A DNA stretch of 61,194 nucleotides, taken from IMG/VR virus record IMGVR_UViG_3300025117_000072, positions 1-61,194 of that record, one strand, 5' to 3'. A program made the translations under genes and the position numbers. This document shows, in pieces, positions 3,521 to 56,895 of this stretch (its first letter is position 1; each line of letters opens with the position of its first letter). This stretch comes from a virus. Lineage: Duplodnaviria; Caudoviricetes. The notes beneath the pieces are model-generated. The model saw nothing but the letters and a program-made list of their open reading frames with translations. It had not been told where the DNA came from and ran no database searches.

Positions 3521-4178
3521 AATCTCCCCCTCCTACGTTGAACAGGTAATCAATGGCCGAAAGGTTCGGCACAAAATCCCCCCATAGCTGCGGATAGACT
3601 GGATGCCTGAAGTCCGAATAGACCACCCTGATTCCGGCCTTTTCGAAAAGGCTCTCATCCATGTAAGCCTTCCCGGTCGGCCCGGACAGGTACTCGTCGG
3701 CCCCTACTTCCTGGCATATCCTGACAAGGCGTTCTGTCGATGTTGCACCCACTTCTAGGCTGGATGCCTCTATGGTAGGCGTTCGGATGTCCATCTCCAT
3801 TGCCAGCCAAGTCAGAAGGGCAATGTTCATCTCGGAAAGCCGCGTCCATTTCCGTTTCATGATCTCAGACAAGAACTGAAAGCATGGGTCGAAGTAGACC
3901 GCCCTGGCGTAGCTTCTTTGGATAGCCCCAAGAATCTTGTCCCGCCAGTTCCCTTCCGCAATCGACACGTCCTCGATGGTCTGCCGCCCCTTGCCCTTCT
4001 GTACTACCGGCACGGTCAGCCATTGCACCCCTTGAGGCGTCTTTATCCGGTTGCGGTTGATGAAGCGGTTCTTGGCAAACTGCGCGTCATCCAAGAAAAC
4101 GAACAGGTCACAGTTTCGCCATTTGTGGAAGAACCCCAAAAACGGCATGAAGTTCGGCTGATGAATGGCTACCCGCAT
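3489..4178 (-). CDS. wbqC: WbqC-like protein
   Basis: IHQPNFMPFLGFF, DDAQF, NRNRI, YLSGPTG, LSAIDYLFN signature motifs. Confidence 0.92.
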   Translation of the reverse strand: MRVAIHQPNFMPFLGFFHKWRNCDLFVFLDDAQFAKNRFINRNRIKTPQGVQWLTVPVVQKGKGRQTIEDVSIAEGNWRDKILGAIQRSYARAVYFDPCFQFLSEIMKRKWTRLSEMNIALLTWLAMEMDIRTPTIEASSLEVGATSTERLVRICQEVGADEYLSGPTGKAYMDESLFEKAGIRVVYSDFRHPVYPQLWGDFVPNLSAIDYLFNVGGGDYETLSGLQSQ

Positions 4179-4181
4179 GAC

Positions 4182-4766
4182 TCACCTGTATAGAAAAACC
4201 GTGAAGTCGTTTTCCCGATAGGAACAGTCAACCACCATCTTGCGCGTGATCTGCGAAAGCATACTCATCATGCCGGAAGGATGCACATAGGCCGCTTCGG
4301 GATTCTCGCACTTTCCGAAGATGCTCAGAAAGTTCACCCCTATGCCGATGCCGCACAGGTCGAACATCTTGTTGACAACCCGAAAGACGTTCTCCTGCCA
4401 GTCGTCTCTTTTCAGGGAGAAGATGCCGGAAGCGAAAACATAGTCAAATGTGGTGGACCCGGCATGGTAACAGCTCATGAAGTCGCCCACGCAGAACGAG
4501 GCTTCCGGGTAGCGCATCATGGCCTCTTCGACAAACTCAGGCATCATATCAACGCCTACATATCGGAGAATGCGTACCCTCTGTTTGAGATAGCCGTAGA
4601 AATCCCCGAACCCACAGCCCACATCCAAAACCTTGCGGTCGGTTAGATTCCCGATTTTCGTCAGGGCTTCAAACCGCTGTTCCTGTGACTTTTCATTCCA
4701 CCCCAGGGCTTCAACGCTTACCCTGTGCTTTTCAAAGAGCCCCTTGAAATACTCCTTCGTGTTCAT
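4182..4766 (-). CDS. Class I SAM-dependent methyltransferase
   Basis: VLDVGCGFG motif I; FDYVFASGIF. Confidence 0.9.
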   Translation of the reverse strand: MNTKEYFKGLFEKHRVSVEALGWNEKSQEQRFEALTKIGNLTDRKVLDVGCGFGDFYGYLKQRVRILRYVGVDMMPEFVEEAMMRYPEASFCVGDFMSCYHAGSTTFDYVFASGIFSLKRDDWQENVFRVVNKMFDLCGIGIGVNFLSIFGKCENPEAAYVHPSGMMSMLSQITRKMVVDCSYRENDFTVFLYR

Positions 4767-4775
4767 AATCCCCCC

Positions 4776-5375
4776 TCACTTTACGATTTGCCTCACCACG
4801 TTGAACAGTTCCGCATACCTGACTCCAGCCTGTACTCCACGCACCCGCGCAAGGCCCATGACGTATTCGGAATCCATGTAGGGCTTCCCCGCCTGAGACT
4901 CGTAGCACCGCATGGCCTCGATTTTCTTCTCAAGGTGCCTCTCTTCTATCTGCACGAACATTTGAGCGTCGAAATTAAGGTTGTTCCAGGATGCCTCATA
5001 CCCGATCAGGTTTTTACCCTTGAACGCCCGCAGACCTTCCATCGCTATCACCTGATGGTCCTGGTGAATGTCGTCAAGGGAAGGCTGAACCACAAGGTCA
5101 GGATTCAGGCGGTCCCTTGTCTCGATCATCTTGTCAAGGATCTGCTGCCGGAATCTTGGGAAGTCCCTTATGGGAACATCGAAACAGAAGGCTCGTTTTA
5201 CGCCCAGGATTTTCAGGGATGACAGCAATTCCGACTTGCGAACATCGTCCTTCCCGAAGACCAGAAAGTAGACAGAAGCGCCGTTTTCCACCAGCCGCGC
5301 AATCGTGCCGCCGCAACCTATTTCCGCATCGTCAGGGTGTGGCGCAAGGATGAAGACGGTTTTGGAATTCAGCAT
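4776..5375 (-). CDS. PIG-L/LmbE family deacetylase
   Basis: APHPDDAEIGCGG, HQDH, YESQ motifs. Confidence 0.92.
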   Translation of the reverse strand: MLNSKTVFILAPHPDDAEIGCGGTIARLVENGASVYFLVFGKDDVRKSELLSSLKILGVKRAFCFDVPIRDFPRFRQQILDKMIETRDRLNPDLVVQPSLDDIHQDHQVIAMEGLRAFKGKNLIGYEASWNNLNFDAQMFVQIEERHLEKKIEAMRCYESQAGKPYMDSEYVMGLARVRGVQAGVRYAELFNVVRQIVK

Positions 5376-6844
5376 GGCCGCTCCAGAATCACCGTGTCAG
5401 CGTTTCGGGTAAGTTCCTTCCAACCCCTGAAATACTTGTCAATCCATTGCAAGTCTTCCGGTCGGCCCGCATCGTGGCAAGCCACAATCGGAACCTTGCT
5501 TTCAAAGACCGATCGATATGCCGCTTCCCGATTCTTCCCGCCATGAGGTCCGTCGATGAAAGCCATATCACCCGAAACAGACACCGTTTCGTGTCCTTCC
5601 CACAGCCTGAAAGTTCCCCCTGGAACCTTCCGCTTCATTTGCTCAAGCCATGCCTCATGGGTCTCATAGGAGACAACCCTGCATCCGCATTGACTGAAGA
5701 GTTCCGTCGAAATACCGGCACCGAACTCCGTCACGTTCCGTATTCCGTGCTCTTGGATAAAGTCTTTCAGGAGATCCCAGTCGGCCTTTGTGATGGACAT
5801 GTCGTTCCACTTCGGCTCTTTCGCGCTCCCGAGTACCTTTTCACACAGCGCCTTGATAGCCAAAGCCGCCGTCTTATTATCAAAGAGCTTCAGGGCTCGC
5901 TCTCTCAACTGAGCCTTGCTTTCAGGAGTGATGCTTTCGTAACAACGATTGATCGCAAGGGCAAACGCCTTGTAATCCCTTGGCTCCGCAGTGTAGTCGG
6001 TGTACCTGCATCCTATTGGTGCCACACAGGGCAACCCGGATGCCATGGACTCCCGTATAATCCGAGTGGCAATGACGTTCGGGGTCAGAAGAATATCTGC
6101 GCTCCGGTAAACATCCGCAAGATTGCCGACCACCCCGCTTACCTGACCGACCACCCCTTTCCTCTGAAGGGGAGCGAGAAACTTGAACTGCTTCCCCTTT
6201 TTGACGTTCGACGCCCCAAAGACATGAAGCCTTGCGTCAGGCCGATACCGCTCCTTGAAATACTGAGCGGCGAAGATCAGGTTGAACGGGATGTTGTCTT
6301 CCCGCCACATATCGCAGCAAACGAGATTCAACCCCGCCTTGAATTCCCCGAAGTCGTGTTTCTTTCCTTCAGGGGTGTACTCACCGAAACTCACGGGAGC
6401 GGGCACACAGTAAACTTCCTTCCCGGTAATCCATTTCCAGTAGAAAACGAACTCCGGCCAGAAGGTGAAGAAGGCCGCATGGCTCCCGTTCCGTGCGGCC
6501 TTCATGACGGATGAAATCACAGGGGAGATATCGTACTGCTCCAGCCTGAAGGAATTCTCCGGCCTTCCATGTAGGGCCAGAATGACCGGCTTTGCCTTAT
6601 AGACCGAATCGGGAACGGACGTATGCCGTACAACAACATCCGCATTTTCCAAAGCCCAGGAGAGAGGGGAGGTCTTCAGTTCCCCGTCAACCAACCCCTC
6701 TCTAACGGTCCCCAGGTTGTCCGTTCCGCAATCTATGAATTCCGCCTCTATGCCCTCTGCGCGTTCCGCAAAGATCAAATCCTTCACGGTTTCATACATG
6801 CCCGCCGCATGAGGCGAAAATCTACAGAAGTGAGCAATACGCAC
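5369..6844 (-). CDS. GT4-like glycosyltransferase fused to C-terminal methyltransferase-like domain
   Basis: YRSADILL...ESMASGLPCV GT-B motif; VTEFGAGIST...AFIDGP...HD methyltransferase motifs. Confidence 0.82.
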   Translation of the reverse strand: MRIAHFCRFSPHAAGMYETVKDLIFAERAEGIEAEFIDCGTDNLGTVREGLVDGELKTSPLSWALENADVVVRHTSVPDSVYKAKPVILALHGRPENSFRLEQYDISPVISSVMKAARNGSHAAFFTFWPEFVFYWKWITGKEVYCVPAPVSFGEYTPEGKKHDFGEFKAGLNLVCCDMWREDNIPFNLIFAAQYFKERYRPDARLHVFGASNVKKGKQFKFLAPLQRKGVVGQVSGVVGNLADVYRSADILLTPNVIATRIIRESMASGLPCVAPIGCRYTDYTAEPRDYKAFALAINRCYESITPESKAQLRERALKLFDNKTAALAIKALCEKVLGSAKEPKWNDMSITKADWDLLKDFIQEHGIRNVTEFGAGISTELFSQCGCRVVSYETHEAWLEQMKRKVPGGTFRLWEGHETVSVSGDMAFIDGPHGGKNREAAYRSVFESKVPIVACHDAGRPEDLQWIDKYFRGWKELTRNADTVILERPC

Positions 6845-8520: not shown

Positions 8521-9756
8521 CTACCCCACCATTCTGGCAGCTAGCTCAGGGTACAGACAGGCGACTCCAAAAAGAATATCCATTCTCAGAATTTCCTCGT
8601 CCTGATCGATGTCATACGCTTTGACTACCCTGATCGAAAGCCCCATCTGCTTGTCGGTGACTCTCGCGCCCCAGGTGTTGGCTGGCATGGCGATAGGCAT
8701 CGTTACGAGCGCGAAGGCGTTCGGGTGGAAAATGAGGTTCATCGGGTATTCCGTGGACTCCGTTCCCACCATGTTGATGGACGCGTCGTTCGGGGGAAGC
8801 CGGGTCATGTTCTTGTAAGACCCGGTGCTTCTCATGCCCTCAGAGGTCGAGGACATAACGTCGATGGTGACGTTCCCGGCAGAATCGGCAGTCTCGTCGT
8901 TCAGGCTCACAAACTGCTTGAGCTGCCCGGTGCTGACCCGGCTCTTGGGGTTGACCGCGTAGACGTAGGACGCGGCTCCGCTCCCAACGGTGAACACATC
9001 GCCTGCCTTCAGAACGGCGGCTGAAGCGTTCCATCCATCGGACTGAATCTGATACGAACCCTCCTGGATGTTCGTTCCAGGATCGTCGTCAACGAGCGGG
9101 GTGCAGCTTGTCGTGAATGCCCCGGTCGTATGCCGCCTGATATTCTGATCCATGTGGATATCGAGGTTCGCAATGGTCCCAAGGTATCCCTTGGTCAGAA
9201 TGTCGTTGGCGGGTTTGGAAGCGAAGGTGCCCTTCAGCCCATCGGCAATCGCCCAGTGAGCGGCGGGGTTGATGACTGCCACTCTCGGGGAAGGAGCCGC
9301 AAGCTCATCAAGAACTTGCTGGCAGGCCCCAAGGTCGGAAAAGTTCGACGGTGTGGTTCCGGGGGTTCCCTTCTGGGAGAACACGTCGTCATACAGCCCG
9401 GTCAGGTCGTAATCGACGGTATTCGCCAGTTCCGCAGCGGCAGGCTGGATGTACCTTTGACTGTACTCCTCGATGGTCATGGTGAGTTCGACCGAAGAGA
9501 AAGCCCAAGTGACATGCGCCTGAGTCGCAACGGTCAGGGTTTCTTTGTACTCAGTGACGTTCTCATTGCTTCTGGCTTGCGCCTTGGTCACGGTGAACTT
9601 GTTGGGCTTCCTGATGGACACGGAAGTTCCAACCTTCTTGAATTCGTTCTTGTACTCCTTGTAAACGAGTTTCCCCATCACAAGGCTGTTGGTCAGCATC
9701 ATCAATGCTTCTTTGGCAATGATGGTCGGGGTGAGCAGCGTATTGGTGGATGGCAT
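8521..9756 (-). CDS. Major capsid protein (P22 gp5 coat family)
   Basis: NTLLTPTIIAKEAL, KVGTSVSIRKP, FHPNAFALVT, RMDILFG...PELAAR motifs; follows scaffold. Confidence 0.92.
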   Translation of the reverse strand: MPSTNTLLTPTIIAKEALMMLTNSLVMGKLVYKEYKNEFKKVGTSVSIRKPNKFTVTKAQARSNENVTEYKETLTVATQAHVTWAFSSVELTMTIEEYSQRYIQPAAAELANTVDYDLTGLYDDVFSQKGTPGTTPSNFSDLGACQQVLDELAAPSPRVAVINPAAHWAIADGLKGTFASKPANDILTKGYLGTIANLDIHMDQNIRRHTTGAFTTSCTPLVDDDPGTNIQEGSYQIQSDGWNASAAVLKAGDVFTVGSGAASYVYAVNPKSRVSTGQLKQFVSLNDETADSAGNVTIDVMSSTSEGMRSTGSYKNMTRLPPNDASINMVGTESTEYPMNLIFHPNAFALVTMPIAMPANTWGARVTDKQMGLSIRVVKAYDIDQDEEILRMDILFGVACLYPELAARMVG

Positions 9757-9770
9757 GATCTATCTCCTTC

Positions 9771-10889
9771 TTATGCCACCCTGCTCTTCTTCATCCCGTC
9801 CCGCGTGTAGCCGCGTTGTGCGTAGTATTCTCCGATGCTGGCATCTTCGAGGGTCTTGGAGACCTTGCCAGCACCACCTACAGGCTTGATGGGAGGGGGA
9901 GCGGATGGCGGTTTCGGTTTTTTGCTGTCTTTGGGAAGTTCGGTATCTTCGCCTCCGGTGGAGGCTTTCACTTCCGGCACGTTGTCGATGAATTGGGCTT
10001 CGATGCGCCCAATCTCCCGTGCGATTGCGACAGGCGATTTGAGGGAAGCGAGCTTCTTGGCGGTCTCGGGGTTCTGGCCCAGGTGATAGAAGATTTCAAC
10101 GGCATGGTCGGAGTCACTTGCGGCATTGAAGGTTTCCTCTGTAAGAGGCACCGCACCAACGACTTCCAAAAAGTCGGGGTAGGTCTCCTGACCAAGATCG
10201 ACTATCCTCTTGCGGGGATCTTCGTCCGGTTCCTGTTTCTTCTCTTCTTTGGGCTTTTGCGCTTCCTGAGACTTCGATTCGTATATCTCGGTCTTTGCCG
10301 CCCACTTGCCGAGCGCCACTTGGTAATCGTCCACGTTCTCAAAATCCTCTGCCTTCGGCTTTTCGGATTCGAGCTTGGCTTTCTCGGCTTGCACCTTCTG
10401 AGCGTTCAACTCATCTTCGAGTTTCTTCGCTTTCGCTTCGGCGGCTTCGGCCCTTCGTATCGCCTCGTACTTCTCACGGGTAGCCTTGTTGATCCGTTTT
10501 TGAATGGGATCAGGCGCGGCCGCAGGGGGTTTTTTGTCTTTCTCCCCCTCTTTCTTTTCTTCAGGCTTCTCGCCAGAGGGTTTGTCGGTTTCCGGTTTCT
10601 CTTCTTTCTTCCCGTCAGGCGTTTCGCCAGGCTTTGCTTCTTCCTTCTTTTCTTCAGGAGACTCTTCTTTCTTGTCGTCTCCAGCAGGTTTGTGAAATAC
10701 GGAATCGGGAGACACGAACATTTCGCTGTCTTCGTCAGTTACCGCGATGTCTCCGTCCGCTATCCGCTGCGCGTCGGACTTTTCATCCGGCGTGTCTGCA
10801 TCCTTCTCGGTCGGTGTGTAGGAGACATCCTCCACGATGCCCGTGCTGTCCAATCCGTCATTTTCGCCAATGTTTTTTTGCGTCGGCAT
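9771..10889 (-). CDS. Capsid scaffolding protein
   Basis: Highly charged; IQKRINKATREKYEA, YHLGQNP, EIGRIEA, PPPIKPV; between portal and coat. Confidence 0.85.
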   Translation of the reverse strand: MPTQKNIGENDGLDSTGIVEDVSYTPTEKDADTPDEKSDAQRIADGDIAVTDEDSEMFVSPDSVFHKPAGDDKKEESPEEKKEEAKPGETPDGKKEEKPETDKPSGEKPEEKKEGEKDKKPPAAAPDPIQKRINKATREKYEAIRRAEAAEAKAKKLEDELNAQKVQAEKAKLESEKPKAEDFENVDDYQVALGKWAAKTEIYESKSQEAQKPKEEKKQEPDEDPRKRIVDLGQETYPDFLEVVGAVPLTEETFNAASDSDHAVEIFYHLGQNPETAKKLASLKSPVAIAREIGRIEAQFIDNVPEVKASTGGEDTELPKDSKKPKPPSAPPPIKPVGGAGKVSKTLEDASIGEYYAQRGYTRDGMKKSRVA

Positions 10890-11136: not shown

Positions 11137-11268
11137 CTACTTCACTTGTTCGTGTTTTATGACTTTCCCGATTCCTCCCTCAGTAAAATGGATCTCAAGC
11201 GACCCCGTGAATTTGCGCGTCACGATCTCTTTCAGAATGTCGAATAGACGCTGAAGGCTAAAGGCCAT
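11137..11268 (-). CDS. Small YezD/DUF2292-like protein (43 aa; not in the ORF track)
   Basis: MAFSLQRLFDILKEIVTRKFTGSLEIHFTEGGIGKVIKHEQVK; overlaps stop of upstream gene. Confidence 0.5.
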   Translation of the reverse strand: MAFSLQRLFDILKEIVTRKFTGSLEIHFTEGGIGKVIKHEQVK

Positions 11269-11809
11269 ATTCCCCACACGCCCACCATTCCTTTGTCTTG
11301 ACTGCCTTGACCATCCCGCCCCTGAAGTACCCCATCGGGTCTCCGTGGGCAGTCGTGTTCAGTCTTGGTACTTCCACGTCCCTTCCGAAGTGTGACTTTA
11401 CGATGGACGGCCACCACGTTTCCGCCTCTTCTAGTTTGACACAATGGACGTTCTCGGGAATCTTCCCGTTCAGGAACAGGTACTCATGCTGCGGTTTGAA
11501 CTCATCCAACGGTTTCGCAAGCCAGTATTCATAGAAGAACTCGTTGAAACTGACGGTCTTGAATCGCGTCCTCTGCGAGAACTGCCGCCTGTACTCGTAA
11601 ATGCTCACGGTCCGGCTGAACGGGTTGCGGATATTTGCGTAAACCACGTATTCCGAAAACTCCGGGAAATTCTTTCTCGAAAGCGGGACGTGCTTCTTCC
11701 CCACCTGCTCCCACTTGTACGGCAAGGACTCCAGCATTTTGCAGATGGAAGTCCCACCCGCCTTGTTCATGTGGTAGAAGGCGAAGTGTTGGTGGGGAAA
11801 GATCATCAT
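11258..11809 (-). CDS. Sulfotransferase family 2 protein
   Basis: FYHMNKAGGTSI (5'-PSB) and IRNPFSRTVSIY (3'-PB) motifs. Confidence 0.85.
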   Translation of the reverse strand: MMIFPHQHFAFYHMNKAGGTSICKMLESLPYKWEQVGKKHVPLSRKNFPEFSEYVVYANIRNPFSRTVSIYEYRRQFSQRTRFKTVSFNEFFYEYWLAKPLDEFKPQHEYLFLNGKIPENVHCVKLEEAETWWPSIVKSHFGRDVEVPRLNTTAHGDPMGYFRGGMVKAVKTKEWWACGEYGL

Positions 11810-12123
11810 ACGAGAAGACGGCTCCTGTTCTCAAACCGCTGGACCTGCTTGTCCATTTCGTCCAGCTTCTTCTTGAGTTTCCAGGCTTCGCCCTTCCGCT
11901 TGGTCTCTTCGAGCTTGGACATGAACATGTCGAACTCGGCCCGGAGTTTGTGGTACTTCTCAGTCAGCCGCTTGTTTAGTGCGCTAATGGATTCAATCGC
12001 CTGCTTCGCAACGATAATGGCGTTCTCCTGCTCTCGGATATGCTCAACGAGTTTCAGCACTCTCGGTTCGCACGTATCGCAGAAACGGAACTCATCGAGC
12101 ATTGGGTCTTTGTCTTCACTCAT
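11806..12123 (-). CDS. Hypothetical coiled-coil protein
   Basis: ATGA-type coupling to portal and sulfotransferase genes. Confidence 0.65.
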   Translation of the reverse strand: MSEDKDPMLDEFRFCDTCEPRVLKLVEHIREQENAIIVAKQAIESISALNKRLTEKYHKLRAEFDMFMSKLEETKRKGEAWKLKKKLDEMDKQVQRFENRSRLLV

Positions 12124-14660
12124 TTCCTGCCCCTCATCTGTTTTTCCATTTCCTGTGTAGCAATATATTTAACTTGGCTATGAAGGTAATCTTTTTCTGG
12201 ATCAGTCAAGCCCATGCTATCTATATCTTTAAGGTGTTCAATTCCTTTGGCTATAGCATTTAGTTTCTGTATATTTATTTGTTCACCTTGTTGTGCAAAT
12301 GGACTTTTACCCTTTGCGATTCTGTACCTTGCGTAATCCATGGCCTTTCGTACAATGACATCGTTTGGCTGGCCGCCAGATAGCAAATGATTGACTTCCT
12401 GCTTTGTCAGTGTGGGGACTAGGGATGGAATTTCGATCTCTCTTCCATCAAGATTAACGCCAATGGATATTTCAGTTGAAACTTTCCCGTCCGGTCGCTT
12501 TAGTTCCCCCAGAAATCCTAATCCCTTTGGAGACCCATCTGATCGCGCCCCGTAGTGGTTAGGTATAACATTTCCGTCTTGTCCTGGAACAATCACTTCT
12601 GGGCCATTCTCTCCAACAATGTACGGCTGTCCAGCATTCACAGGACCACCGTATTGTCTGCCCTCTATAGGACTGCCGCCTTCCCCTCCCATGTCCGCCA
12701 CTTTTCCCTGGAGCGCGGTCGCTTCCTTGGCAAGCCGGACCTGCTCTTCCTTGAGCTTCAATTCTTCCTGCTGCACCTTCAGGTTTTGCTGCTCCACCTT
12801 CAGGGCTTCCTTCTGACCCTCAAGGCTCTGCTTGAACTCCTCCACGGCATCCTGAATCATCCGGGCAACCATCTCCTGTGTAAGCGGAGGCTGTCCGCCC
12901 TCCATCTCCCTGACTTCAGGCGGAAGCAGAGTTTCCAGTCTCTTGACCAACTTCTCACCACGCGGGATGTCCATGTAATCCACAAGCACGTCCGCAATGA
13001 GCGGGGCAATCTGCGGGGCATACTGCATGATGGCCTGAAGCCTGTCCAACGCCTCTTGTCTCTGTGTCGCGTAAGAAGGACCGGTCTGCATGATGATGTC
13101 GTGCTTACCGACTGTCAGGTCAACCTTCGGCTTCTGCTCCCCGTTCTCACCTTCTACAGTACGGTTTACGTCTTGTGTGGTGATGGTCTTCCCATCAATG
13201 CCGAGCATCTTGATTACCCTGGCCGTGTCGTAAATCTCCGGCCTCATGCTCTCGATCACGCGCCCGACTTGACGAATGGCCCTCACAAGGTTGTCATGAT
13301 AGGCGAAGGTAACGGCATCGTCCGCCGCTTTCCTTTCCCGTATGGCAAGCCCGGAGGTCTCGTTCGATTTCCTGCCAAGGGACGCTTCGTGAAGCCCGAT
13401 GATGTCCTTCTTCTCGATCTGCCGTTGCGCTCCCTGCTCTACAAGGCCGGATGGAATCTGAGGGGGAACCTCACGTCTAGGAAACACCCCAGGCATTTTT
13501 TCATCAGGGTTAGCATACAGAACTGGGGAATTGTCTGTGTTTGCTTGTCTCCATTGTGACTCGAATCCTTCAGTCATTCTAGGAGTTGCAATAAATGGGG
13601 CCTTTGGCTGAAGGGCCAGCAGTTCCGTGATGGCGCTCTGCGTGTAGATATACATCCGCTGCGGGTCTTTGGCGTACCGGAAGAGACCGCGATAGAGTTT
13701 CTTCCCGTTGACGTTCGCCTCTTTCCCCCAGACAGGAATGATCGGCCACAATTTCCCTGGTATCCGAATCGGACCTTCCAGAACAGCCGTACCAGAAATC
13801 TTCCGCCACACGATATCGAAGTCCTCGATCTCCCGTTCCTTGAGGATGGTGATTCCTTCAGCCGGTTTCTCTTTCAGGACTTCGTAATCTTCCTTCTCCT
13901 GATTGAAAATCAGGTAAATCTTCTTGGTCCCCTTGCGCTCTTTCCTGAACCACTCCGCAATCCGAACGGTCTTGTCATGAACGGAGTACCAGTCCTTCAG
14001 GTTCTCGGGCAACTTCTCGGCCTCGAAGTCGATCACTTGGGCATCGGGGTAGTCTTCCTTGAACTGATCTACCGGAATGTCGTCCAGCAGGAACATGAAC
14101 TTTCCATCGTTCTTGTGCCAGAGCCTTGCCCGTGGGTCGAACAGGACGTTCAGGGAATTATCGACAGGGGAAATCCTGATCTCCTGATTGAAGGCGTCCA
14201 CCACGTTCCGATACTCGTCCTTGATGTTACCCTCGTTGTCGAACACATCCTCGTTCTCGTACTGCGTCAGCACCCGGATGGCCCCGCAATACCCACGCGC
14301 AGCCGCATCCTCAAGGGCCATGTCATACGCTACATGAGCGTCTGAAACGTGCTCGATGTAGCGGATAAGCCCGCCCACGATTTCCGCCTTCTCGGGGTCC
14401 GTGTTGGAATCGACCGGCATGGCCTTGATACCCGCCCGGTTCATCCTCTGCGCGGCAGTCACTTTGTCGAGAAAGACAGGGAGGTCATTGGCGTTCAGGC
14501 AGGGACGGCCGGCGCGGTCGTTTTTGACAGTTTCGTCCCATTGATCCTCGGAAAACACGAAGGTTGAGTCTTCAACGGCCTTCTCCCGGTTGTCCTTCTC
14601 GAATTCAATGGCCGAGTTCGCCTGCTCTAACGCCGTTTTTATGAGGTCTTTTTCATCCAT
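12120..14660 (-). CDS. Portal protein (P22 gp1-like) with C-terminal extension
   Basis: DQWD...RPCLNAN, VLFDP, IIPVWG, AKDPQRMY, SNETSGLAI, TGPSYATQRQEA; follows terL. Confidence 0.93.
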   Translation of the reverse strand: MDEKDLIKTALEQANSAIEFEKDNREKAVEDSTFVFSEDQWDETVKNDRAGRPCLNANDLPVFLDKVTAAQRMNRAGIKAMPVDSNTDPEKAEIVGGLIRYIEHVSDAHVAYDMALEDAAARGYCGAIRVLTQYENEDVFDNEGNIKDEYRNVVDAFNQEIRISPVDNSLNVLFDPRARLWHKNDGKFMFLLDDIPVDQFKEDYPDAQVIDFEAEKLPENLKDWYSVHDKTVRIAEWFRKERKGTKKIYLIFNQEKEDYEVLKEKPAEGITILKEREIEDFDIVWRKISGTAVLEGPIRIPGKLWPIIPVWGKEANVNGKKLYRGLFRYAKDPQRMYIYTQSAITELLALQPKAPFIATPRMTEGFESQWRQANTDNSPVLYANPDEKMPGVFPRREVPPQIPSGLVEQGAQRQIEKKDIIGLHEASLGRKSNETSGLAIRERKAADDAVTFAYHDNLVRAIRQVGRVIESMRPEIYDTARVIKMLGIDGKTITTQDVNRTVEGENGEQKPKVDLTVGKHDIIMQTGPSYATQRQEALDRLQAIMQYAPQIAPLIADVLVDYMDIPRGEKLVKRLETLLPPEVREMEGGQPPLTQEMVARMIQDAVEEFKQSLEGQKEALKVEQQNLKVQQEELKLKEEQVRLAKEATALQGKVADMGGEGGSPIEGRQYGGPVNAGQPYIVGENGPEVIVPGQDGNVIPNHYGARSDGSPKGLGFLGELKRPDGKVSTEISIGVNLDGREIEIPSLVPTLTKQEVNHLLSGGQPNDVIVRKAMDYARYRIAKGKSPFAQQGEQINIQKLNAIAKGIEHLKDIDSMGLTDPEKDYLHSQVKYIATQEMEKQMRGRK

Positions 14661-14661
14661 T

Positions 14662-16437
14662 TCAACTAGCCATCCATGCCGTCTCTACATTGTGGTCTCT
14701 GACATTGTGGTCTTCCGGCCCTCGCTCGATCTTCCTGGGGAGCTTGTCCATCATCTGCCTTGCAATCTGAGCGGTAGTCACCCGGTCGTCATGGCACCCC
14801 GCCTCAGCCCCGAACTTCCCCGATTTCTCGATATAGGTCCGCATCTCAGACACCGTTTCCCTGCACCGAATCGTTATGACACCTTCGCGGCATCCGTCCA
14901 GAAGCCCGTCAGCCATTTCCGGCTTTGTCTTCTTATTCGTGCTCCAGCCGTACTCTCCCGGCTTATGGGAGTACATCGGGTATTCCCTGGCCTTCAGGTC
15001 TCCCACGACCTTATATCCGTGATTGTTCAACTCGGGACACGCGGTCGCCCGTCCGTACATCTCCCCTACTGCTTCAACCACATCGGAAATCAGGTCGTAA
15101 TCCACATGCCCATACCACTGGGCGCATTGGTTCCCGGTCCTCCGGTTCCAAACGTCGATGACCGTCTTGTCCGGTTCCTTGTTCTCCTTCTGGTGGATCT
15201 CCCGCATTCCTCCGGCAGCATCGACGGTCAGGAAGTAAATCTCCCGTGGGTCGTAAGTCTCCCATACGGACAGGTGCCCGTTCGGGTTCGGCTCGATGAC
15301 AGGGACTCCCATCCGCCTTACGACATTCCCTACACCTATCGGCTTCAGGCATCCCCGTTCCACCATGTCGCAGAATTCCTGGTTGTAGTGGTTCGACCCC
15401 TTAGTCCTGAAGGCTTCAAAAATCGTCAGGGGGTTTTCCTGCTTGAAAAGCCCCACATCCCCCCGGCACTCGTTTTTGATCGACCACTCTCTCCAGTACA
15501 GTTGCTCGTTGGTGAGCTTGTACTTCTTCTGAAGCTCCTCCACCCCGTAGTTGATATCTTCCTTCCGGTTCTTTGCCCCAACGACCCTTTGAAGGAAACG
15601 CTCCTTCCTCTCGGGGTTTTCAAACTTCTTCTGGCACGATGGGTCCAGAAACCACGGGATGAAAATCAGAATCCAATCGCTGTCCGGGTTGTGGTAAGCG
15701 AAGGTGAACTCCACATCCGCCAAAGGCATGTGCGGGGCGAACTCGGAAATCAAGGCCGTGAAGTACGGGTACTTCCCTTCGCTGTAGGCGTCGAACACGT
15801 CCCGCTGGAAAGAGTTCCCATACCCTTTACCGGTGGACTCCCTCCATATCTCCGTGTCGGCAGGAGGTCTCGGGACGCACTGGAAAAGGCTTCCAAGGAG
15901 TTCGTCTGCATGTCCGGGCCACATCGCCTCTTCGGACCCATGGAGGAAATGAACCCCCTGGGAACGACCGGCTTCCACGTTTTTGGCCGTCGCAAGGCTG
16001 TATTCCGACTTCAGCCCCTTGCCCTTACTCCTATCGAACCTCAGTTCAATAGCGTTCGAGGTGATCGTGCTGGGAGCAATGGGGTTCTGCTCCTGCATGA
16101 GCTGGACCATGCGGTAGAGAGTCGTGGTCGATTTGTCTTCGTGGGCGATAATGAAAATCGACTGATTGAAATTCAGAGACGCCCTGTGATACCCGCGCCC
16201 CCCGATGTAGGTCGATCCCCCGAAACGTCTGTTCTTGAGAAGCATGATCCTGAGAAAGCCCATCTCGGCTTTCCGCTTCTCCGCTACGGCGTGCATGACC
16301 CTTTGTCCCGGCCGAAACCTCAAGGGCAAAATCTCAGCCGTGTTGTGGTCCCTGACCTTGATGCAGTCCTTGGCGAACTTCTCGTAATTTTGCTGATAAG
16401 ACAGTATGGCTTGTTCGACGGGACGAAGTTCGGTCAT
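14662..16437 (-). CDS. terL: Terminase large subunit
   Basis: LKNRRFGGST Walker A variant, LHGSEEAMW Walker B, ESTGKG coupling motif, TVDAAGG and HDDRV nuclease motifs. Confidence 0.93.
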   Translation of the reverse strand: MTELRPVEQAILSYQQNYEKFAKDCIKVRDHNTAEILPLRFRPGQRVMHAVAEKRKAEMGFLRIMLLKNRRFGGSTYIGGRGYHRASLNFNQSIFIIAHEDKSTTTLYRMVQLMQEQNPIAPSTITSNAIELRFDRSKGKGLKSEYSLATAKNVEAGRSQGVHFLHGSEEAMWPGHADELLGSLFQCVPRPPADTEIWRESTGKGYGNSFQRDVFDAYSEGKYPYFTALISEFAPHMPLADVEFTFAYHNPDSDWILIFIPWFLDPSCQKKFENPERKERFLQRVVGAKNRKEDINYGVEELQKKYKLTNEQLYWREWSIKNECRGDVGLFKQENPLTIFEAFRTKGSNHYNQEFCDMVERGCLKPIGVGNVVRRMGVPVIEPNPNGHLSVWETYDPREIYFLTVDAAGGMREIHQKENKEPDKTVIDVWNRRTGNQCAQWYGHVDYDLISDVVEAVGEMYGRATACPELNNHGYKVVGDLKAREYPMYSHKPGEYGWSTNKKTKPEMADGLLDGCREGVITIRCRETVSEMRTYIEKSGKFGAEAGCHDDRVTTAQIARQMMDKLPRKIERGPEDHNVRDHNVETAWMAS

Positions 16438-51667: not shown

Positions 51668-54451
51668 TTAATCGCGGGCAGCCGCCCAAATGCCTAATGC
51701 TGCTATGTGGTCGGAAAGCCTCTTTTCTGCAACCGGCACCCTTTGACCCTTAGCAAGAAACTGAAGGGTCTCGGCATACTCAGGGTTGAAAATGGCCTTA
51801 TTTATAACCTGATCCACCAGTGCGCGTTCGTGCTTTGCGAACATGCCCGCAACGGCCTTAATTGCTGTGGCCGACCTGCTTGTCTGTGCCAATGGGCTAC
51901 CAAGGACCGCCAAGGTCTGCATGATGTTTTCAGCCGTATCAGACCCCCCGCCAAAAGGAGACCTTTGGTTTCGGATCATGATCTCATAGGCTTTTTTCAT
52001 GTTCATGAGGGCATGAATCTTCTGTGGCTCACTCCTGTAAAGTTCCCGCATGGCAGGAGCGTACTTCTGCCAAAGAGCGTTAAACTTCGCTACACTCGCT
52101 GAAGGATTGCCCACTATGTCCATCATGCTCGTCTGAATCTTCGTGACGGCATAATCCCCGAATGCCTGTTTTACCCCTTCGGTTGCAGCCTGATTGCCCC
52201 TTGTAAGTTCAAGGATCTCACGGGCCGTCTGTGCTCCGTTCGTTGCCCCACGGCCTGAAAATAGGGTTGCAATGGCCTTTTCAGGGTCCACCCCTAACGC
52301 TTTTGCCGCCTGTGACCTCTCAAAAACCTTCTGGAGCTTTGCTGCTTCATCTACTGCGGCCTTTGCCTGAACAATGTCGGCATACTCATTCTCAAGCCCG
52401 TATTTGCTCAAGGCTGGCTTGTTTTTGGCAAGCCATGACATGAGCTTTCCCCTGTCGATTTCCCCTGTCATCGGGTTTACCGATTTCCGCATGAGGTCAT
52501 AGGTCGCGTACTCTCTGACTAAAGGAACGGCTTTTTCTCTGCCCACGGCAGCAAGGAGTTGATCGGCTGCGGATACATTCTTTGCGCTGAAGATCGAGGA
52601 AAGCATCTGTTCCGGGTTCAGCTTTGATACTTCGCCCTTTGCCCCACCCTGAAGGATGTTCCCCACTGTTCCGCGCTTAAACGTCTCTGCGTACTGCCTC
52701 CATTGCTTTGACGCCATGCGGTAAAGGTTTACAACGTCCTCCCCGTACTTCCCGGTATCGGCAAGTTGGTCGATAGTCTTTTCAACCACCTCCTGCATTT
52801 GGGCAAGCCTTCTCATCTTGGCAGGATTGTTCTTTGCGGCCTCGGAACGCATTTCGTTCAGGATCTCAGTCCGCATCCCGCGAAGTTCCTGAAACTTCAG
52901 CGTGTCGCCTGTGCCGTACTTTGCAACCTCATCGGCAAGTTGCTTCGGGAGTGGTTGCCCTGTCTTCGTGTAGGCATCCACAATATTCTGGAGTTCGGGA
53001 GGCATCTCCTTTGGTCCGTATTCCTTCAGTGACCGGCGCAAGACATTCGGATAATTGGCCTGCGACTCTACCGCGCTCGTCGGTTTGGCAATGGCCTTCA
53101 GTTCATCAATCATCCCTGTGGTCGGGACATCGACATCGGGGATACGGTCATACAACTTACTGACAGCCTGTGAGGTATGCCGCTTTTCAGTCTTCAGCAA
53201 CTCCAAGAGTCTGCCGCTTGCCTCTGTGGGTTCCTTGGCTTGCGCCATGCGGGATTCGATAGCAGAAGCGGCCCCTTTCGCCCCTTCCACGCCTTTTTCA
53301 AGGGTTTCCCGCTTCCCCTGTAGGGCCGAAAGCATGTCGTCGGCTCCGCTCTGAGAACTGAAATTCGTCTGGTAGTACGCTTTCAGGGCCTCATCATTCG
53401 ATGCTATTTGTTCCGCGCTCATCTGCGCTGCGTCCCCAGGCTTACGGATTTGCGCCCTTTCCATCCTGATTGCCTGTGGGTCATAGGTTTTCTGCCCGTA
53501 GGTGAACTTGATCCCAGGAATGGCCGCTTCGATATCCACGGCTTCCTGTGCGTTCTTGGCATAGATGGGGCCTTGGCTTGTATTCGCAACCCATAGGTCG
53601 CCAGCTTTTGACTTGATCCTTTCGGTAACGTGTTTGGAAAAAAGCCCCTTGCCTTGGGCGAAGGCCCACTTACCGGCCTTCATGACAGGCTGAAAGAGGA
53701 TCTTCCCTGCAATCTGCCCTCCTGCTTCGTATGCCGCCCCTGTCACGATGTCTTTACCAGATTCAACGAATTCCTCTCCCACGGTCCTTGTGGGCTTTTT
53801 CTCCCCGGCGAGATAGTCTATCCCTGATTCAACAAGTTCACCCACCTTCTTGCCTGCGGCATATCCAAGCCCACCGCCCACGACTGCCCCGCCAGGAACA
53901 GGGGATGCAGCACCAGCAATCGCTCCAGCCGTCAGTCCTCCGGCTTCAAGGGTTCCCCTCACGGCAGACTTCAGGTTCTCCCGCTGTGCCTTGCCTTTAT
54001 CCGGTGACTCATAGAGTTCATAGTCTTCAACTCCAAGGTAGGGAGTGGGTTCTTGGGTAGGTTTACCTGCGCCTGCCTTCGGTTCGGCGTCGGGGATCAA
54101 AGACCAAGGATCTTTGGATGGAGATGAATCTACTGCATCAGCAAAGGGAGATTTCCCAAGGGAAATCCTTTGTCTCGCATGTTGGACGGCTTTTTGAACG
54201 ATCTCAGGAGTGGGTTGTCCGCCAGACAGGAGATGGTTGGTTTCCTGCTTTGTAAGGGTAGGAACGAGAGATGGGATTTCGGTTTCTTTTCCGTCTAGAT
54301 TCACTCCTATTGAGAGTTCCGTTGAAACGCTCCCGTCTGGACGCTGAAGGGTTCCCATGAATCCAGGCCCTTTCGGTGAACCATCAGATCGCGTTCCCCA
54401 ATTAGTATTACTTGTCTCCGCCGCATTCGGTATGCTGTCCCACGGGTCCAT
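51668..54451 (-). CDS. Large DNA ejection/internal virion protein (gp16 position)
   Basis: 927-aa helical protein with Gly-rich hydrophobic segment; third of three ejection genes. Confidence 0.75.
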   Translation of the reverse strand: MDPWDSIPNAAETSNTNWGTRSDGSPKGPGFMGTLQRPDGSVSTELSIGVNLDGKETEIPSLVPTLTKQETNHLLSGGQPTPEIVQKAVQHARQRISLGKSPFADAVDSSPSKDPWSLIPDAEPKAGAGKPTQEPTPYLGVEDYELYESPDKGKAQRENLKSAVRGTLEAGGLTAGAIAGAASPVPGGAVVGGGLGYAAGKKVGELVESGIDYLAGEKKPTRTVGEEFVESGKDIVTGAAYEAGGQIAGKILFQPVMKAGKWAFAQGKGLFSKHVTERIKSKAGDLWVANTSQGPIYAKNAQEAVDIEAAIPGIKFTYGQKTYDPQAIRMERAQIRKPGDAAQMSAEQIASNDEALKAYYQTNFSSQSGADDMLSALQGKRETLEKGVEGAKGAASAIESRMAQAKEPTEASGRLLELLKTEKRHTSQAVSKLYDRIPDVDVPTTGMIDELKAIAKPTSAVESQANYPNVLRRSLKEYGPKEMPPELQNIVDAYTKTGQPLPKQLADEVAKYGTGDTLKFQELRGMRTEILNEMRSEAAKNNPAKMRRLAQMQEVVEKTIDQLADTGKYGEDVVNLYRMASKQWRQYAETFKRGTVGNILQGGAKGEVSKLNPEQMLSSIFSAKNVSAADQLLAAVGREKAVPLVREYATYDLMRKSVNPMTGEIDRGKLMSWLAKNKPALSKYGLENEYADIVQAKAAVDEAAKLQKVFERSQAAKALGVDPEKAIATLFSGRGATNGAQTAREILELTRGNQAATEGVKQAFGDYAVTKIQTSMMDIVGNPSASVAKFNALWQKYAPAMRELYRSEPQKIHALMNMKKAYEIMIRNQRSPFGGGSDTAENIMQTLAVLGSPLAQTSRSATAIKAVAGMFAKHERALVDQVINKAIFNPEYAETLQFLAKGQRVPVAEKRLSDHIAALGIWAAARD

Positions 54452-55857
54452 TACTTTTGCCCTCCAAGAATCCCCATGGCCTGTTTGATGGTATCCTCGT
54501 TCACTTCCTTGCCCCTGGATTCCAATTCCTGAATTGCACGGTCACGAAGACTTCCGCCCTTATCGTAAGAGGGAGTCAGATATTTATCGGGGTCGAGACC
54601 GTAGTTGGAAAGATACCCCTTGTACTCATGTAGCCGCTCTTTGTAGATCCTATCGGATGATTTCTTAAATCTCCGGGCAAGGGTCACAAGGGCTTCCCTG
54701 TCTTCTTTCGTAAGTCCCGCGCCGCCCTTCTGCCATGCCTCAATTTTACCCTTGATCCTGTTCTCAAGGCTCAGGTTTTCCGGTGTCCTTGCATACTCGC
54801 TCTCTCGTACAACAGAGTTCGGGTCTGTGATCTTGTTCCATGTCGTGATAATGGCCTGATCGACCGCCACAAAGTTCTTGGTCTTCTCGGCTTCCTTCAA
54901 TGCTTCATCGAGGTTGGAAACCTGCTTTACGATGGTTGAGTATTCCTTGATCTCGGGAAGCGTGTTGAATTCTTTTCTGAGGTCCGTTCCGGCCTTTCGG
55001 TTCTGGACTTCCCGCTGTTTTGCGAGTTCTTCGATGTACGGCGATGTCTCCTTGGTCTCCCGTATCCATTTGAGCCTTGCTGCCTTGTACTCGGGGGTTC
55101 CACGCATTTCAGGAACGAGTTTTCCGTATTCCGCAAGCTCAAAGTCTTTCAGGGTTTGACCGGCAGGATCTTTCGAATCATCCTTCTCCGGCTTTGCCAA
55201 GCTCCACCCCTTCGGCGGAACATACTCCTGTCCCTTCGACATGGGTACGCGCTTCGTCTGGCCTCCAGGACCGTAGAGGGTCGCCATGTCGGTGTCGGCT
55301 TTGAGCCTGTTCAGCGTGATTCCCTTCGTTTTGGCCCATGATGCCAGACTTCCGATCTTGGTAGTAGAAACAGGGCCGTCAGGAGTATTTACCGTTATCT
55401 TCTCGTTAGACAGAAGGGTTGGATCTTTCTGGATAGCTGAGTACATGTCGCTCACGAAAGAGGACGGCCCCTTGATTTCAAACCCCTCCCGCTCATCCTT
55501 GATAGTCACATCGGGGCCTACCCACTCCACATCAAACCCTCCGAACTCCTTGGCGAGTTTCTTGCCAATCTCAGGCGAAGGTGCGGTCATGGCCGTTACA
55601 TACTGCTTAGCCCTTTCTGCCTTATTTTTAAGTTCCGCCGCTTCCTTCTCCAACTCGAACTTCTCAGCGTCCCTTGTCTGCTGCGTGAGATAGTTCTGGA
55701 CCTGCGCTTCCTTCAGTTTCATCTCAGCGGGAAGGTTGGCGAGCTTCGCCTCGTTGAGCTTGCTTTCAAGGAGATAGTTCTTTGCCTGTGCAGCCTTCGT
55801 GAAAGCCGAGGCAGGATCGGGCGCTAGATAATTCGTGTTCAGTGCGGGAACTGGCAT
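54451..55857 (-). CDS. DNA ejection protein (gp20 position)
   Basis: KITDPNSVVRESE motif; synteny. Confidence 0.7.
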   Translation of the reverse strand: MPVPALNTNYLAPDPASAFTKAAQAKNYLLESKLNEAKLANLPAEMKLKEAQVQNYLTQQTRDAEKFELEKEAAELKNKAERAKQYVTAMTAPSPEIGKKLAKEFGGFDVEWVGPDVTIKDEREGFEIKGPSSFVSDMYSAIQKDPTLLSNEKITVNTPDGPVSTTKIGSLASWAKTKGITLNRLKADTDMATLYGPGGQTKRVPMSKGQEYVPPKGWSLAKPEKDDSKDPAGQTLKDFELAEYGKLVPEMRGTPEYKAARLKWIRETKETSPYIEELAKQREVQNRKAGTDLRKEFNTLPEIKEYSTIVKQVSNLDEALKEAEKTKNFVAVDQAIITTWNKITDPNSVVRESEYARTPENLSLENRIKGKIEAWQKGGAGLTKEDREALVTLARRFKKSSDRIYKERLHEYKGYLSNYGLDPDKYLTPSYDKGGSLRDRAIQELESRGKEVNEDTIKQAMGILGGQK

Positions 55858-55875
55858 CTGTCAAACCTCCCATCA

Positions 55876-56895
55876 TTAACTGGCCGGATAGTAGCTGTTC
55901 GTATACCCAGGCGATCCATACTGTGTCGCACTAGGCTGATAGATAGCCGCTGGCTGCTGTTGTGGTTGTGTCAGGTAGTTATAGAACATGGCGTTGTTCG
56001 CGCCCTGCATCATTGAATTTATCCCACCCGTGATGGCATTGGCCTGATTGATATATCCAGAAGCCGTAGCGTCTCCAGCCCTCATGATATTTTGCCCGAC
56101 CTGTGATCCTGTCTGTGTGGCCGCATTCGTGGTCGCGCTTGTGGCAACCTGTCCCATTCCTGAAACCGAAAGGAGGGGGTTCACCTTCGTCTGGAGCCAG
56201 TTCTGAATCCAGTTCTGATATTCAGTGGAAGCCAGCCCCTTGCCGTACCTCTGCGCTTCTCTCTGTGCCGCGCCTGAATCCAAAATCCCCCTTGCGCTTT
56301 GCGAGCGAGCGAGTTCCTTGTTGCCCTCTTCCAAGAGGAAGTTGTAGTAGGGGCTTTCGGTAAATTCGCCGGGACCGGTTTCGAGGATTCCGGGTTCACG
56401 GCTAACGAGTTTTCCGGGAACGGCAACATCTTCATACGTTTCCATTCCAGGCAGTTTCATTTGTTTGATGCTTTGCTCGTTGACCGCCCTGTATCCGGGA
56501 GGGATTTGGTTGACCGTCTCCGGCCCCGCTCCACCAAAACTCGTCTGGTAGCCCGGAAAATTCTCCGGGTTTTGTCCGGCCCGGATAAGATCGGCGTCGG
56601 GGACCAAGAAACTTCCCTGCACTGGGCCGTTCACAAGCTTCGTGTAGCCGCCCCCTGAAACAGCACCCCCGCCGCTGACCAACCTCCGCTCGGTAGTTGA
56701 CGGCTCACGTACTTCTTTGCCGAGAATGAGGGTATTGAGAGCCATCTTCCCGGCCTCTCTCCATGGGGCCTGATCCTCACGGCTTTTGTAGTACATCTCA
56801 AGCATGGCATCGGTAGCTTGCTCTGCCGCCGCCATCTGTGCGTCTGCCGCTTTACTTGCTGACTTACTCCCAATAAGTGCAGATATACCGCCCAT
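55876..56895 (-). CDS. DNA ejection/pilot protein (gp7-like)
   Basis: SASKAADAQMAAA, SPYYNFLLEEG...SARG...SG, ATASGYINQANA. Confidence 0.8.
   Translation of the reverse strand: MGGISALIGSKSASKAADAQMAAAEQATDAMLEMYYKSREDQAPWREAGKMALNTLILGKEVREPSTTERRLVSGGGAVSGGGYTKLVNGPVQGSFLVPDADLIRAGQNPENFPGYQTSFGGAGPETVNQIPPGYRAVNEQSIKQMKLPGMETYEDVAVPGKLVSREPGILETGPGEFTESPYYNFLLEEGNKELARSQSARGILDSGAAQREAQRYGKGLASTEYQNWIQNWLQTKVNPLLSVSGMGQVATSATTNAATQTGSQVGQNIMRAGDATASGYINQANAITGGINSMMQGANNAMFYNYLTQPQQQPAAIYQPSATQYGSPGYTNSYYPAS

Follow-up and report, generated by a model that had tools for sequence, protein, structure and literature searches.

A conserved domain in the portal and in a putative ejection protein

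The virus record IMGVR_UViG_3300025117_000072 of IMG/VR, analyzed over its full length of 61,194 bases (hereafter, the window), encodes a P22-type portal protein whose C-terminal part carries a domain of about 90 residues that is found again near the N-terminus of a 927-residue putative large ejection protein (Table 1). Relatives of this domain occur in predicted head-interior proteins of short-tailed phages, are far better conserved than the proteins that carry them and are usually present once per genome. We tentatively favor the reading that the domain is a module of the head interior, situated on the portal axis, with a role similar to that of MuF.

The portal and the 927-residue protein align without gaps over the domain, with 66 of 88 residues identical (BLASTP E = 1e-38). 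A preliminary description of the sequence had proposed a gapless shared domain here, counting 66 identities over 87 residues, and its coordinates lie within 4 bases of ours. In DNA the two copies agree at 177 of 264 bases (67%), with 17, 13 and 57 differences at codon positions 1, 2 and 3, respectively; 22 codons are identical, 44 differ synonymously and 22 non-synonymously. The Nei–Gojobori method (NG86) gives a non-synonymous rate (dN) of 0.217 and a saturated synonymous rate (dS) of 5.3, that is, a ratio of 0.04, and the Li–Wu–Luo method (LWL85) a ratio of 0.12. Purifying selection at the protein level, also claimed in the preliminary description, is clear and strong, while the dN/dS ratio itself is imprecise. 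Both copies retain all 13 columns that are invariant in the family, their isoelectric points are 9.4 (portal) and 6.9 (ejection protein), and a search of the genome found these two copies only.

An acquired cassette at the portal C-terminus

The Pfam family PF16510 (P22_portal) covers the portal core with 483.3 bits against a cut-off of 26.1 (E 1.4e-144, model positions 3–592 of 594), and the portal family phrog_156 matches with E 7e-116. The gene lies between the genes of the terminase large subunit and of the scaffold and coat proteins, as in the P22-type head module. The closest portal homologs align up to query residue ~645–657 and then stop. The 21 closest ones (49–73% identity, 656–700 aa) end no more than 28 residues from the shared core and lack the cassette, and just one of the 120 best portal homologs contains the domain. 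An AlphaFold2 (AF2) model of the 246-residue portal extension, made from a 5-row alignment, gives at most a secondary-structure hint (mean predicted local distance difference test, pLDDT, of 50.4): a helix at residues 602–657, with pLDDT of ~65–75 in its first 40 residues and below 50 afterwards, and two helices in the C-terminal tail.

The extension had been noted as AT-rich in the preliminary description, and the composition of third codon positions (GC3) bears this out with a sharp drop from 0.718 to 0.342 at the junction between the helical segment and the sequence that follows it. Overall GC falls to 0.40–0.48 solely over ~12050–12650. This step, together with the cassette-free closest portals, identifies portal residues 665–846 (~180 aa) as an acquired cassette.

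The cassette opens with a Gly/Pro-rich beta motif that matches the C-terminal region of tape measure proteins (phrog_1538, phrog_5062, phrog_8892) as well as phrog_30701, with E values from 3.7e-8 to 8e-3. The motif is conserved in three other portals fused to the domain (L079, L063, P0228) and in P0111 and P0119. A PDB sequence search with the motif alone returned AMP-binding enzymes at a best E of 0.16, with no solved structure holding the motif. In the portals P0231, P0234 and P0237 the same GGxVxxGxPYxVGExGPE-type motif is followed by unrelated sequence that belongs to no Pfam family. Judged from these alignments, the motif is a junction behind which the C-terminal domain of the portal varies, and the C-terminus of P22-like portals looks like a hotspot of modular exchange. 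An assignment of the protein as a tail tape measure protein was considered and rejected, as only a motif of 38–46 residues matches and the carrier is a podophage portal.

Behind the domain, the portal ends in an AT-rich tail that has no relative among the 203 domain proteins fetched; the peptide FAQQGEQ, located right behind the portal domain, recurs in several stand-alone homologs. Cultured phages searched with the portal (tblastn) yielded portals of at most 36% identity, none of them spanning the extension, and a whole-portal search of IMG/VR for related loci found no relative.

A separate feature of P22-like portal homologs is a LAGLIDADG domain (PF14528), carried by four proteins of ~980–1050 aa (P0260, P0263, P0279, P0303), which suggests inteins or homing endonuclease insertions.

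Independent support for the assembly

Misassembly, raised as a risk in the preliminary description, would be one explanation of the repeat, and the GC step at ~12650–12700 lies at what would be a typical site of a chimera. We give a chimeric contig practically no chance. The copies are merely 67% identical in DNA and hence unable to mislead an assembler, and neither reading frame is broken. In two further groundwater studies, contigs agree with the portal extension without a single difference: one (run X7) covers 12352–12761 and spans the junction of core and extension, and the other (run X9) covers 12024–12561, including the whole domain and the end of the gene. Neither the junction nor the extension can thus be put down to the assembly. 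An independent record of a 322-residue protein (P0075) contains a domain copy identical to that of the ejection protein, and its next 181 residues match as well (E 1e-113).

The portal region is present in groundwater and soil metagenomes of several studies (runs X1–X13). The neighboring gene at 11533–11877 differs in run X7 at 28 of 345 bases, compared with none over the portal extension, and related strains may differ just downstream of the portal.

A widespread and strongly conserved domain family

The shared stretch is one autonomous domain. Its AF2 model, computed from a 31-row alignment, has a mean pLDDT of 89.3 and a predicted template modeling score of 0.77 and consists of a Gly-rich N-terminal segment, a beta hairpin and two helices. 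Pfam gave no match to either copy at E ≤ 10, the described LPD models (LPD1–40) included, and no recurrent family among the 31 aligned members at E ≤ 1; no PHROG covers the domain at E ≤ 0.01. Sequence searches of the PDB with one copy and with a profile returned noise only (E ≥ 0.04), and the fold of the model found a best E of 1.4 in the PDB with Foldseek and a best Z of 2.3 among 48,161 chains with VIA-align. BFVD holds only uncharacterized homologs from uncultured phages, ESM Atlas only viral clusters named "hypothetical protein", and a word search of open-access text revealed no paper describing the domain.

Relatives are nevertheless abundant. Among 1.84 billion representatives, 2126 clusters match at E ≤ 1e-3 and 1431 at E ≤ 1e-10, and relatives are encoded on at least 332 IMG/VR contigs. 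In cultured phages the domain is rare, being present in 14 of 50,697 records, which comprise 12 Acinetobacter podophage records, one Pseudomonas phage and the Methylophilales phage MEP301. The carrier in Pseudomonas phage vB_PaP_DMTU_1 has 685 residues. Bacterial genomes rarely contain the domain; a search with one pattern produced 9 loci, all in diderm lineages.

Across 31 diverse members 13 columns are invariant and 12 more nearly so, and 234 copies have a mean pairwise identity of 0.60 although their carriers are otherwise unrelated. Ejection proteins, by comparison, are conserved at less than 10% identity according to the available text of Swanson, Hou and Cingolani (2022; PMC8954989).

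Carriers of the domain

The 203 domain proteins fetched range from 104 to 4812 aa and contain 205 instances of the domain, of which 46 are N-terminal, 61 internal and 77 C-terminal, whereas 21 stand alone. The preliminary description had offered a mobile cargo domain as an alternative view, and this fits well: the domain takes all of these positions in at least 203 other proteins, sits at the other terminus in a protein homologous to the ejection protein (see below) and gives way to other sequences behind the junction motif on related portals. Its carriers suggest that it occurs in head-interior proteins of short-tailed phages: it is found in proteins of the ejection block, in fusions with SLT, in polyvalent proteins of giant size, as a small protein by itself and, rarely, on the portal.

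In giant carriers the domain is nearly always near the N-terminus. Hallmarks of polyvalent proteins (LPD38, LPD1, ART-PolyVal, ddrB-ParB, RadC) were detected in 4 of 19 giant carriers scanned, and phage lysozyme in one. SLT (PF01464) is the sole recurrent Pfam family of mid-size carriers, present in 13 of 71 and, in a second scan, in 10 of 66; the second set omits three near-duplicates, four very long proteins and one other protein and adds three two-copy proteins. SLT often directly adjoins the domain, as in P0007 (domain 310–397, SLT 403–479) and P0060 (SLT 25–127, domain 147–237). MuF (PF04233) was found in none of the 19 and 66 carriers scanned. Three proteins (P0074, P0117, P0122) showed two matched stretches each in the representative search, and two copies were confirmed in P0074 and P0117 (phmmer E < 1e-5).

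The loci studied in IMG/VR are those of the best 80 of the 332 contigs; a domain open reading frame (ORF) was called in 72 of the 80, giving 56 distinct ORFs. The larger carriers among them lie in the tail or ejection region where neighbors can be named. A scan of 64 neighbor genes, most of them without a PHROG match, placed a PHROG "internal virion protein" within two genes of 5 of 25 larger carriers (L050, L056, L023, L076, L068); others have tail-fiber or lysozyme-like neighbors. At L050 the order is internal virion protein, internal virion protein, the 1308-residue domain protein and tail fiber.

The 927-residue carrier of the window has no Pfam family and a single weak PHROG match (E 0.0098, with no qualifying stretch). 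Outside the domain its body has no relative in the 50,697 cultured-phage records (tblastn), where all matches are to the domain. The preliminary description called it a large ejection protein; its gene does occupy the P22 gene-16 position, being third in the ejection block and preceding a tailspike-like gene, whereas sequence similarity gives the name no backing. Gene order alone supports the identity, so "ejection protein" is a positional call. Two homologs are known, P0044 and P0075. P0044 resembles the body of the protein and has the domain at its C-terminus instead of the N-terminus, showing that the module has moved within this ejection-protein family too.

The peptides DPWDSIPNA and DPWSLIPDA enclose this copy and share 6 of 9 residues (hand count) and 14 of 27 bases; for the window itself the repeat has p 0.18. 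Among N-terminal-type carriers, 23 of 44 have a 6-mer that recurs with no more than one of its 6 residues changed, significant at p ≤ 0.05 in comparison with 200 shuffles. Short peptides flanking or preceding the domain are lineage-specific and mostly combine acidic and aromatic residues (P0101, P0036, P0175, P0035, P0181, P0167 and others); they may be phage-specific docking peptides.

These repeats could also be read as insertion footprints, and with the many positions within carriers and the compositional step at the portal cassette they would suit a cassette without a function in the phage of the window, which spreads in frame through late genes as a selfish or hitch-hiking element and is tolerated at protein termini. 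We consider this very improbable in view of the strong purifying selection (dN/dS 0.04–0.12) and of the 13 invariant and 12 nearly invariant columns in 31 members. Moreover, the flanking repeats are kept as peptide and not as DNA, and one copy per genome points to a needed function.

Association with portal genes

Portals near the domain ORFs of IMG/VR were sought with 8 portal queries in flanks of up to 6 kb on each side. Besides the portal of the window, three portals have the domain at the C-terminus, L079 (phrog_156), L063 (phrog_1216, a partial ORF) and P0228 (PF16510). They represent two PHROG portal families; in all three the tape-measure-like motif precedes the domain, as in the portal of the window. 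Stand-alone proteins of at most 180 aa make up 13 of the 56 distinct ORFs. Seven of the 13 stand directly next to a portal gene (offset ±1) and three more at offsets 2–5. The seven adjacent genes comprise five that follow T7-type portals (phrog_332; L072 also matching phrog_1216 and phrog_156) and two that flank P22-type portals. In L061 and L084, also counted among the 13, the gene lies between adaptor and tail-hub genes. The cultured phage MEP301 shows the adjacency as well, its gp34 starting 4 bases past the portal gene.

Copy number and relation of the two copies

A family-profile search of 20 other domain-bearing virus records, which include no long contig for the other portal fusions (L079, L063, P0228), found a single copy in every one, 13 of 13 records of at least 90% completeness among them. 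This holds whether the carrier is a small portal-adjacent gene (record of L083), a 2139-residue protein (record of L008) or a protein of middle size. With its two copies the window stands out from the records searched, and the family thus usually works without a second copy.

This bears on the mechanism put forward in the preliminary description, by which the two copies bind each other or co-assemble into one oligomer and thereby attach the ejection protein, by its N-terminus, to the barrel of the portal. Both copies would be present in one particle, they keep all invariant residues, and they are mutual best matches at 75% identity, a level that only 0.7% of family pairs reach; for P22, it has been proposed that the ejection proteins (E-proteins) attach to the portal barrel where it is disordered (available text of PMC4992974). 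As the general mode of action of the family, such docking between portal and ejection protein is not supported, given the single copies in 20 of 20 other records, and P0044, a member of the same ejection-protein family, has its domain at the C-terminus. Unrelated proteins come as close as these 75% or nearly so, their best copies reaching 73% to the portal copy and 75% to the ejection copy. A complex prediction for the two copies from 31-row alignments gave no answer (scores 0.00 and 0.00) and counts neither way. On balance we find such docking improbable in this phage.

As to descent, the portal copy is 47–57% identical to other portal-borne copies compared with 75% to the copy in its own genome. 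An approximately unbiased (AU) test does not reject the sister grouping of the two copies (p-AU 0.712), the constrained tree being better by 25.5 log-likelihood units. In a FastTree phylogeny of 234 tips the copies fall apart, and the clade of their most recent common ancestor holds 159 of the 234 tips (supports 0.26–0.86); a quick IQ-TREE phylogeny of 70 rows lacks resolution, with 1 of 67 branches starred. Because dS is saturated, the trees conflict and outside identities are similar, we make no claim either way on intragenomic duplication. The ejection copy has the same GC3 as the portal copy, 0.409, against 0.58 across the rest of the 927-residue gene. This low value may stem from two gains out of a pool richer in AT, or from constraint on the nucleotide sequence.

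A possible head-interior module on the portal axis

The C-terminus of the portal, which is expected to remain in the head and to face the inner mouth of the channel, can stand in for the other carriers as the sole carrier of the domain, so that the simplest site common to all of them is the interior of the head along the portal axis. Conservation this extreme suggests that the partner does not vary, for example the DNA end in the channel, the domain itself or a conserved surface. Our tentative explanation, which we put forward as a possibility and no firmer, is therefore a head-interior module of the portal axis whose role is MuF-like. The domain would act inside the head, at the inner mouth of the channel, and would place or hold its carrier there; it would bind something invariant and not a lineage-specific protein. 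One copy would be brought to this place by the portal, by the small protein encoded next to it or by a terminus of an ejection protein, these being interchangeable, and the second copy in the phage of the window would represent redundancy, or a transitional state after the gain of the portal cassette. The available text of PMC4992974 describes E-proteins of P22 clustering round the portal axis.

Several points weigh against this explanation. The tie of the domain to portals and virions consists of gene adjacency and fusion only. The fetched flanks contain no portal for 43 of the 56 distinct domain ORFs, mostly large carriers. If the arrangement of T7 applies, the gene-16-type protein is presumably not the core component nearest to the portal. 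A domain used for anchoring would, when it is part of the portal, have to bind something else than the portal. The copies are not strongly basic, so a DNA partner is not obvious. The frequent fusion or adjacency to SLT suits a cell-wall role equally well, and in Acinetobacter and Pseudomonas phages the domain gene adjoins endolysin genes. In Acinetobacter phage Acibel007 the stand-alone homolog gp49 is encoded between endolysin and the small terminase, away from the portal. Small proteins are readily missed by mass spectrometry. The Acibel007 report, in its available text, names 11 virion proteins found by this method, the unknowns gp03, gp04 and gp24 being among them, and gp49 is apparently absent from those named (PMC4128745). 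A spanin function of the Acinetobacter stand-alone protein was dropped from consideration, since inspection by eye revealed no signal, lipobox or membrane segment.

Part of this evidence is shared by the main alternative, which we rate as rather unlikely. The domain may be a delivered effector or accessory domain that acts on the host envelope once it has been ejected, for instance by attaching to peptidoglycan or to another invariant component of the envelope and aiding lytic transglycosylase. Its carriers, whether ejection protein, small stand-alone protein or extended portal, would then be mere vehicles into the head, the portal copy being released or inert. The SLT fusions and the endolysin neighbors of stand-alone or C-terminal copies suit such a role, as do the phage lysozyme of one giant carrier, the endolysin-like N-termini of L026 and L048 and the apparent absence of gp49 from the named virion proteins. 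The very high degree of conservation seen in phages unrelated to one another suggests that the ligand is universal, and the named hosts and host lineages are all diderm. The variable domains behind one junction motif on related portals resemble polymorphic cargo, and Iyer et al. (2017) take effector domains fused to portals and MuF as injected cargo (available text of PMC5512222).

The same alternative meets difficulties with the portal. No case is known of a portal leaving the capsid; neither a protease nor a processing site was found here, and to our knowledge P22-like phages have no prohead protease. A rule of one copy with interchangeable carriers, the portal included, is hard to square with a site outside the head. 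The stand-alone proteins have no signal peptide or membrane segment by eye, so that they could reach the periplasm only through the virion. Pfam families, among them those that bind the cell wall, give no sequence match to the domain; for known peptidoglycan-binding domains (LysM, PG_binding_1, SPOR) neither a Pfam match nor a PDB fold match was obtained, which is compatible with a new wall-binding fold.

The portal-axis explanation also has a bolder form, which we regard as doubtful. Here the domain would be a universal plug-in address for the portal axis, a podophage counterpart of MuF that decides what is stored at the channel mouth and leaves first, and that can be moved around, whether to the portal, to a small protein from an adjacent gene or to a terminus of an ejection or polyvalent protein. 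The lineage-specific acidic-aromatic flanking repeats may in this case supply phage-specific contacts.

Genome context

The record is a complete virus genome (CheckV completeness 100%). Its gene content indicates a temperate, P22-like, short-tailed phage: Pfam and PHROG matches identify, besides the portal, a P22-type coat, an Ad3-like adaptor and an Hc3-like tail hub, and the genome encodes an integrase (29493–30674) and a DnaB helicase. The late genes are on the minus strand and wrap round both ends of the window. The ejection region runs from the Ad3-like and Hc3-like genes, through further genes, to those for proteins of 339, 468 and 927 aa and a 766-residue tailspike-like protein.

Table 1. 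Features of the portal and ejection loci in the window (aa, amino acid residues of the encoded protein).
Feature	Position	Strand	Basis or remark
Portal gene, 846 aa	12120..14660	-	PF16510 P22_portal, phrog_156, gene position
Portal core (aa 13-625)	12786..14624	-	Pfam extent; GC3 of aa 1-625 is 0.686
Predicted helical, barrel-like segment (aa 626-664)	12669..12785	-	Ends of homologs, low-confidence AF2 model; GC3 0.718
Tape-measure-like Gly/Pro beta motif (aa 665-702), portal/cargo junction	12555..12668	-	PHROG matches; GC3 0.342
Shared domain, portal copy (aa 703-790)	12291..12554	-	66/88 residues identical to second copy; GC3 0.409
Portal C-terminal tail (aa 791-846 and stop), predicted helical, very AT-rich	12120..12290	-	GC3 0.286
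Putative large ejection protein, 927 aa, P22 gene-16 position	51668..54451	-	Gene order
Peptide DPWDSIPNA, just ahead of the domain	54422..54448	-	Repeat search
Shared domain, ejection-protein copy (aa 18-105)	54137..54400	-	BLASTP, alignment, genome search
Peptide DPWSLIPDA, just past the domain	54086..54112	-	Repeat search
Two ejection-module genes (468 aa, 339 aa)	54451..56895	-	phrog_13634 and phrog_598 "DNA ejection"
Terminase large subunit (terminase-like)	14662-16437		Neighbor of the portal gene
Scaffold	9771-10889		phrog_8865
P22 coat	8521-9756		PF11651

Two small genes lie between portal and scaffold (11258–12123). One encodes a 105-residue coiled-coil protein and overlaps the portal stop with its start; the other, of 183 aa, has a weak sulfotransferase-like PHROG match (E 5.8e-4). 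Between the tail hub and the ejection genes (56897–58304) we found a radical-SAM gene (HMPTM zinc ribbon) and a GNAT acetyltransferase gene (phrog_1249). An acetyltransferase gene of phrog_1249 also precedes the domain gene by one or two genes in L022 (2627–3070) and L023 (3394–3864), and a radical-SAM gene lies two genes ahead of the domain carrier in L031 (3188–4255).

The late region downstream of the coat gene contains a sugar-modification cluster (3489–6844) with WbqC-like, SAM methyltransferase, PIG-L deacetylase and group-1 glycosyltransferase genes, which could serve virion glycosylation or modification of the host surface. A gene for a SASA-family carbohydrate esterase (48547–49314) adjoins the tailspike-like gene on the opposite, plus strand, and its product may be a receptor-modifying enzyme.

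Comparison with known systems

Domain fusions to portal and MuF proteins and polyvalent strings of domains, including PBECR, 2H and InPase, have been described (Iyer, Burroughs, Anand, de Souza and Aravind, 2017; available text of PMC5512222). Like polyvalent effector and LPD domains, the present domain is a small module that occurs in giant proteins beside polyvalent hallmarks, alone and fused to portals. It differs from them in having no Pfam or LPD match, in being far more conserved than its carriers and in showing no evident enzymatic signature. It is also typically terminal and present once per genome, with a stand-alone form preferentially beside the portal gene.

In its layout the family resembles MuF/SPP1 gp7 (PF04233), with a domain at the start of large packaged proteins, a small portal-adjacent gene and a portal fusion. 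The gene of MuF comes after that of the portal. In contrast to MuF, with which it shares no sequence similarity, the present domain has ~90 residues and occurs in T7-like and P22-like podophage contexts. MuF itself is described as a head component fused to effectors and portals (available text of PMC5512222).

The P22 system of portal barrel and ejection proteins (gp7, gp20, gp16; Wu et al., 2016; available text of PMC4992974) has counterparts in the window, which encodes a P22-like portal, coat, adaptor and hub and has three genes in the ejection position. The C-terminus of the portal points to where the E-proteins are stored. Unlike in P22, the helical segment past the core is short here (~40–55 residues) and is followed by a globular cargo cassette, and the large ejection protein has no detectable cultured-phage similarity outside the domain. 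The gp16-type core protein of T7, with its N-terminal SLT, offers another parallel: many carriers occupy the gp16 position after internal virion proteins, and many have SLT. It differs in that ejection proteins are conserved at less than 10% identity (available text of PMC8954989) compared with ~60% for this module, which matches no sequence of a solved structure and hence no solved T7 chain.

The motif at portal residues 665–702 matches the C-terminal motif of tape measure proteins (phrog_1538, phrog_5062, phrog_8892; best E 3.7e-8). Here, however, it occurs in the portal of a podophage, which has no tail tube, and forms a junction before variable C-terminal domains. P22-like portal C-termini can be sites of modular exchange behind such a junction.

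What appears to be new beyond the fusions already described is the domain itself, its conservation, the single-copy rule, the adjacency to portals in T7-like and P22-like phages and the tape-measure-like junction with variable cargo. Podophage ejection proteins are among the least conserved and least understood parts of the virion, and here one module keeps ~60% identity over thousands of clusters. If the domain acts on the host envelope, it would be no less new, as an envelope-targeting domain with a very wide distribution. If it is an address for the portal axis, one tag of 90 residues could explain how hypervariable ejection and anti-defense cargo is loaded into podophage heads, and it could serve to load foreign proteins. 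The tie to the portal, the one-copy rule and the position at the head of giant polyvalent anti-defense proteins make addressing to the portal vertex testable in the cultured phages MEP301, Acibel007 and DMTU_1.

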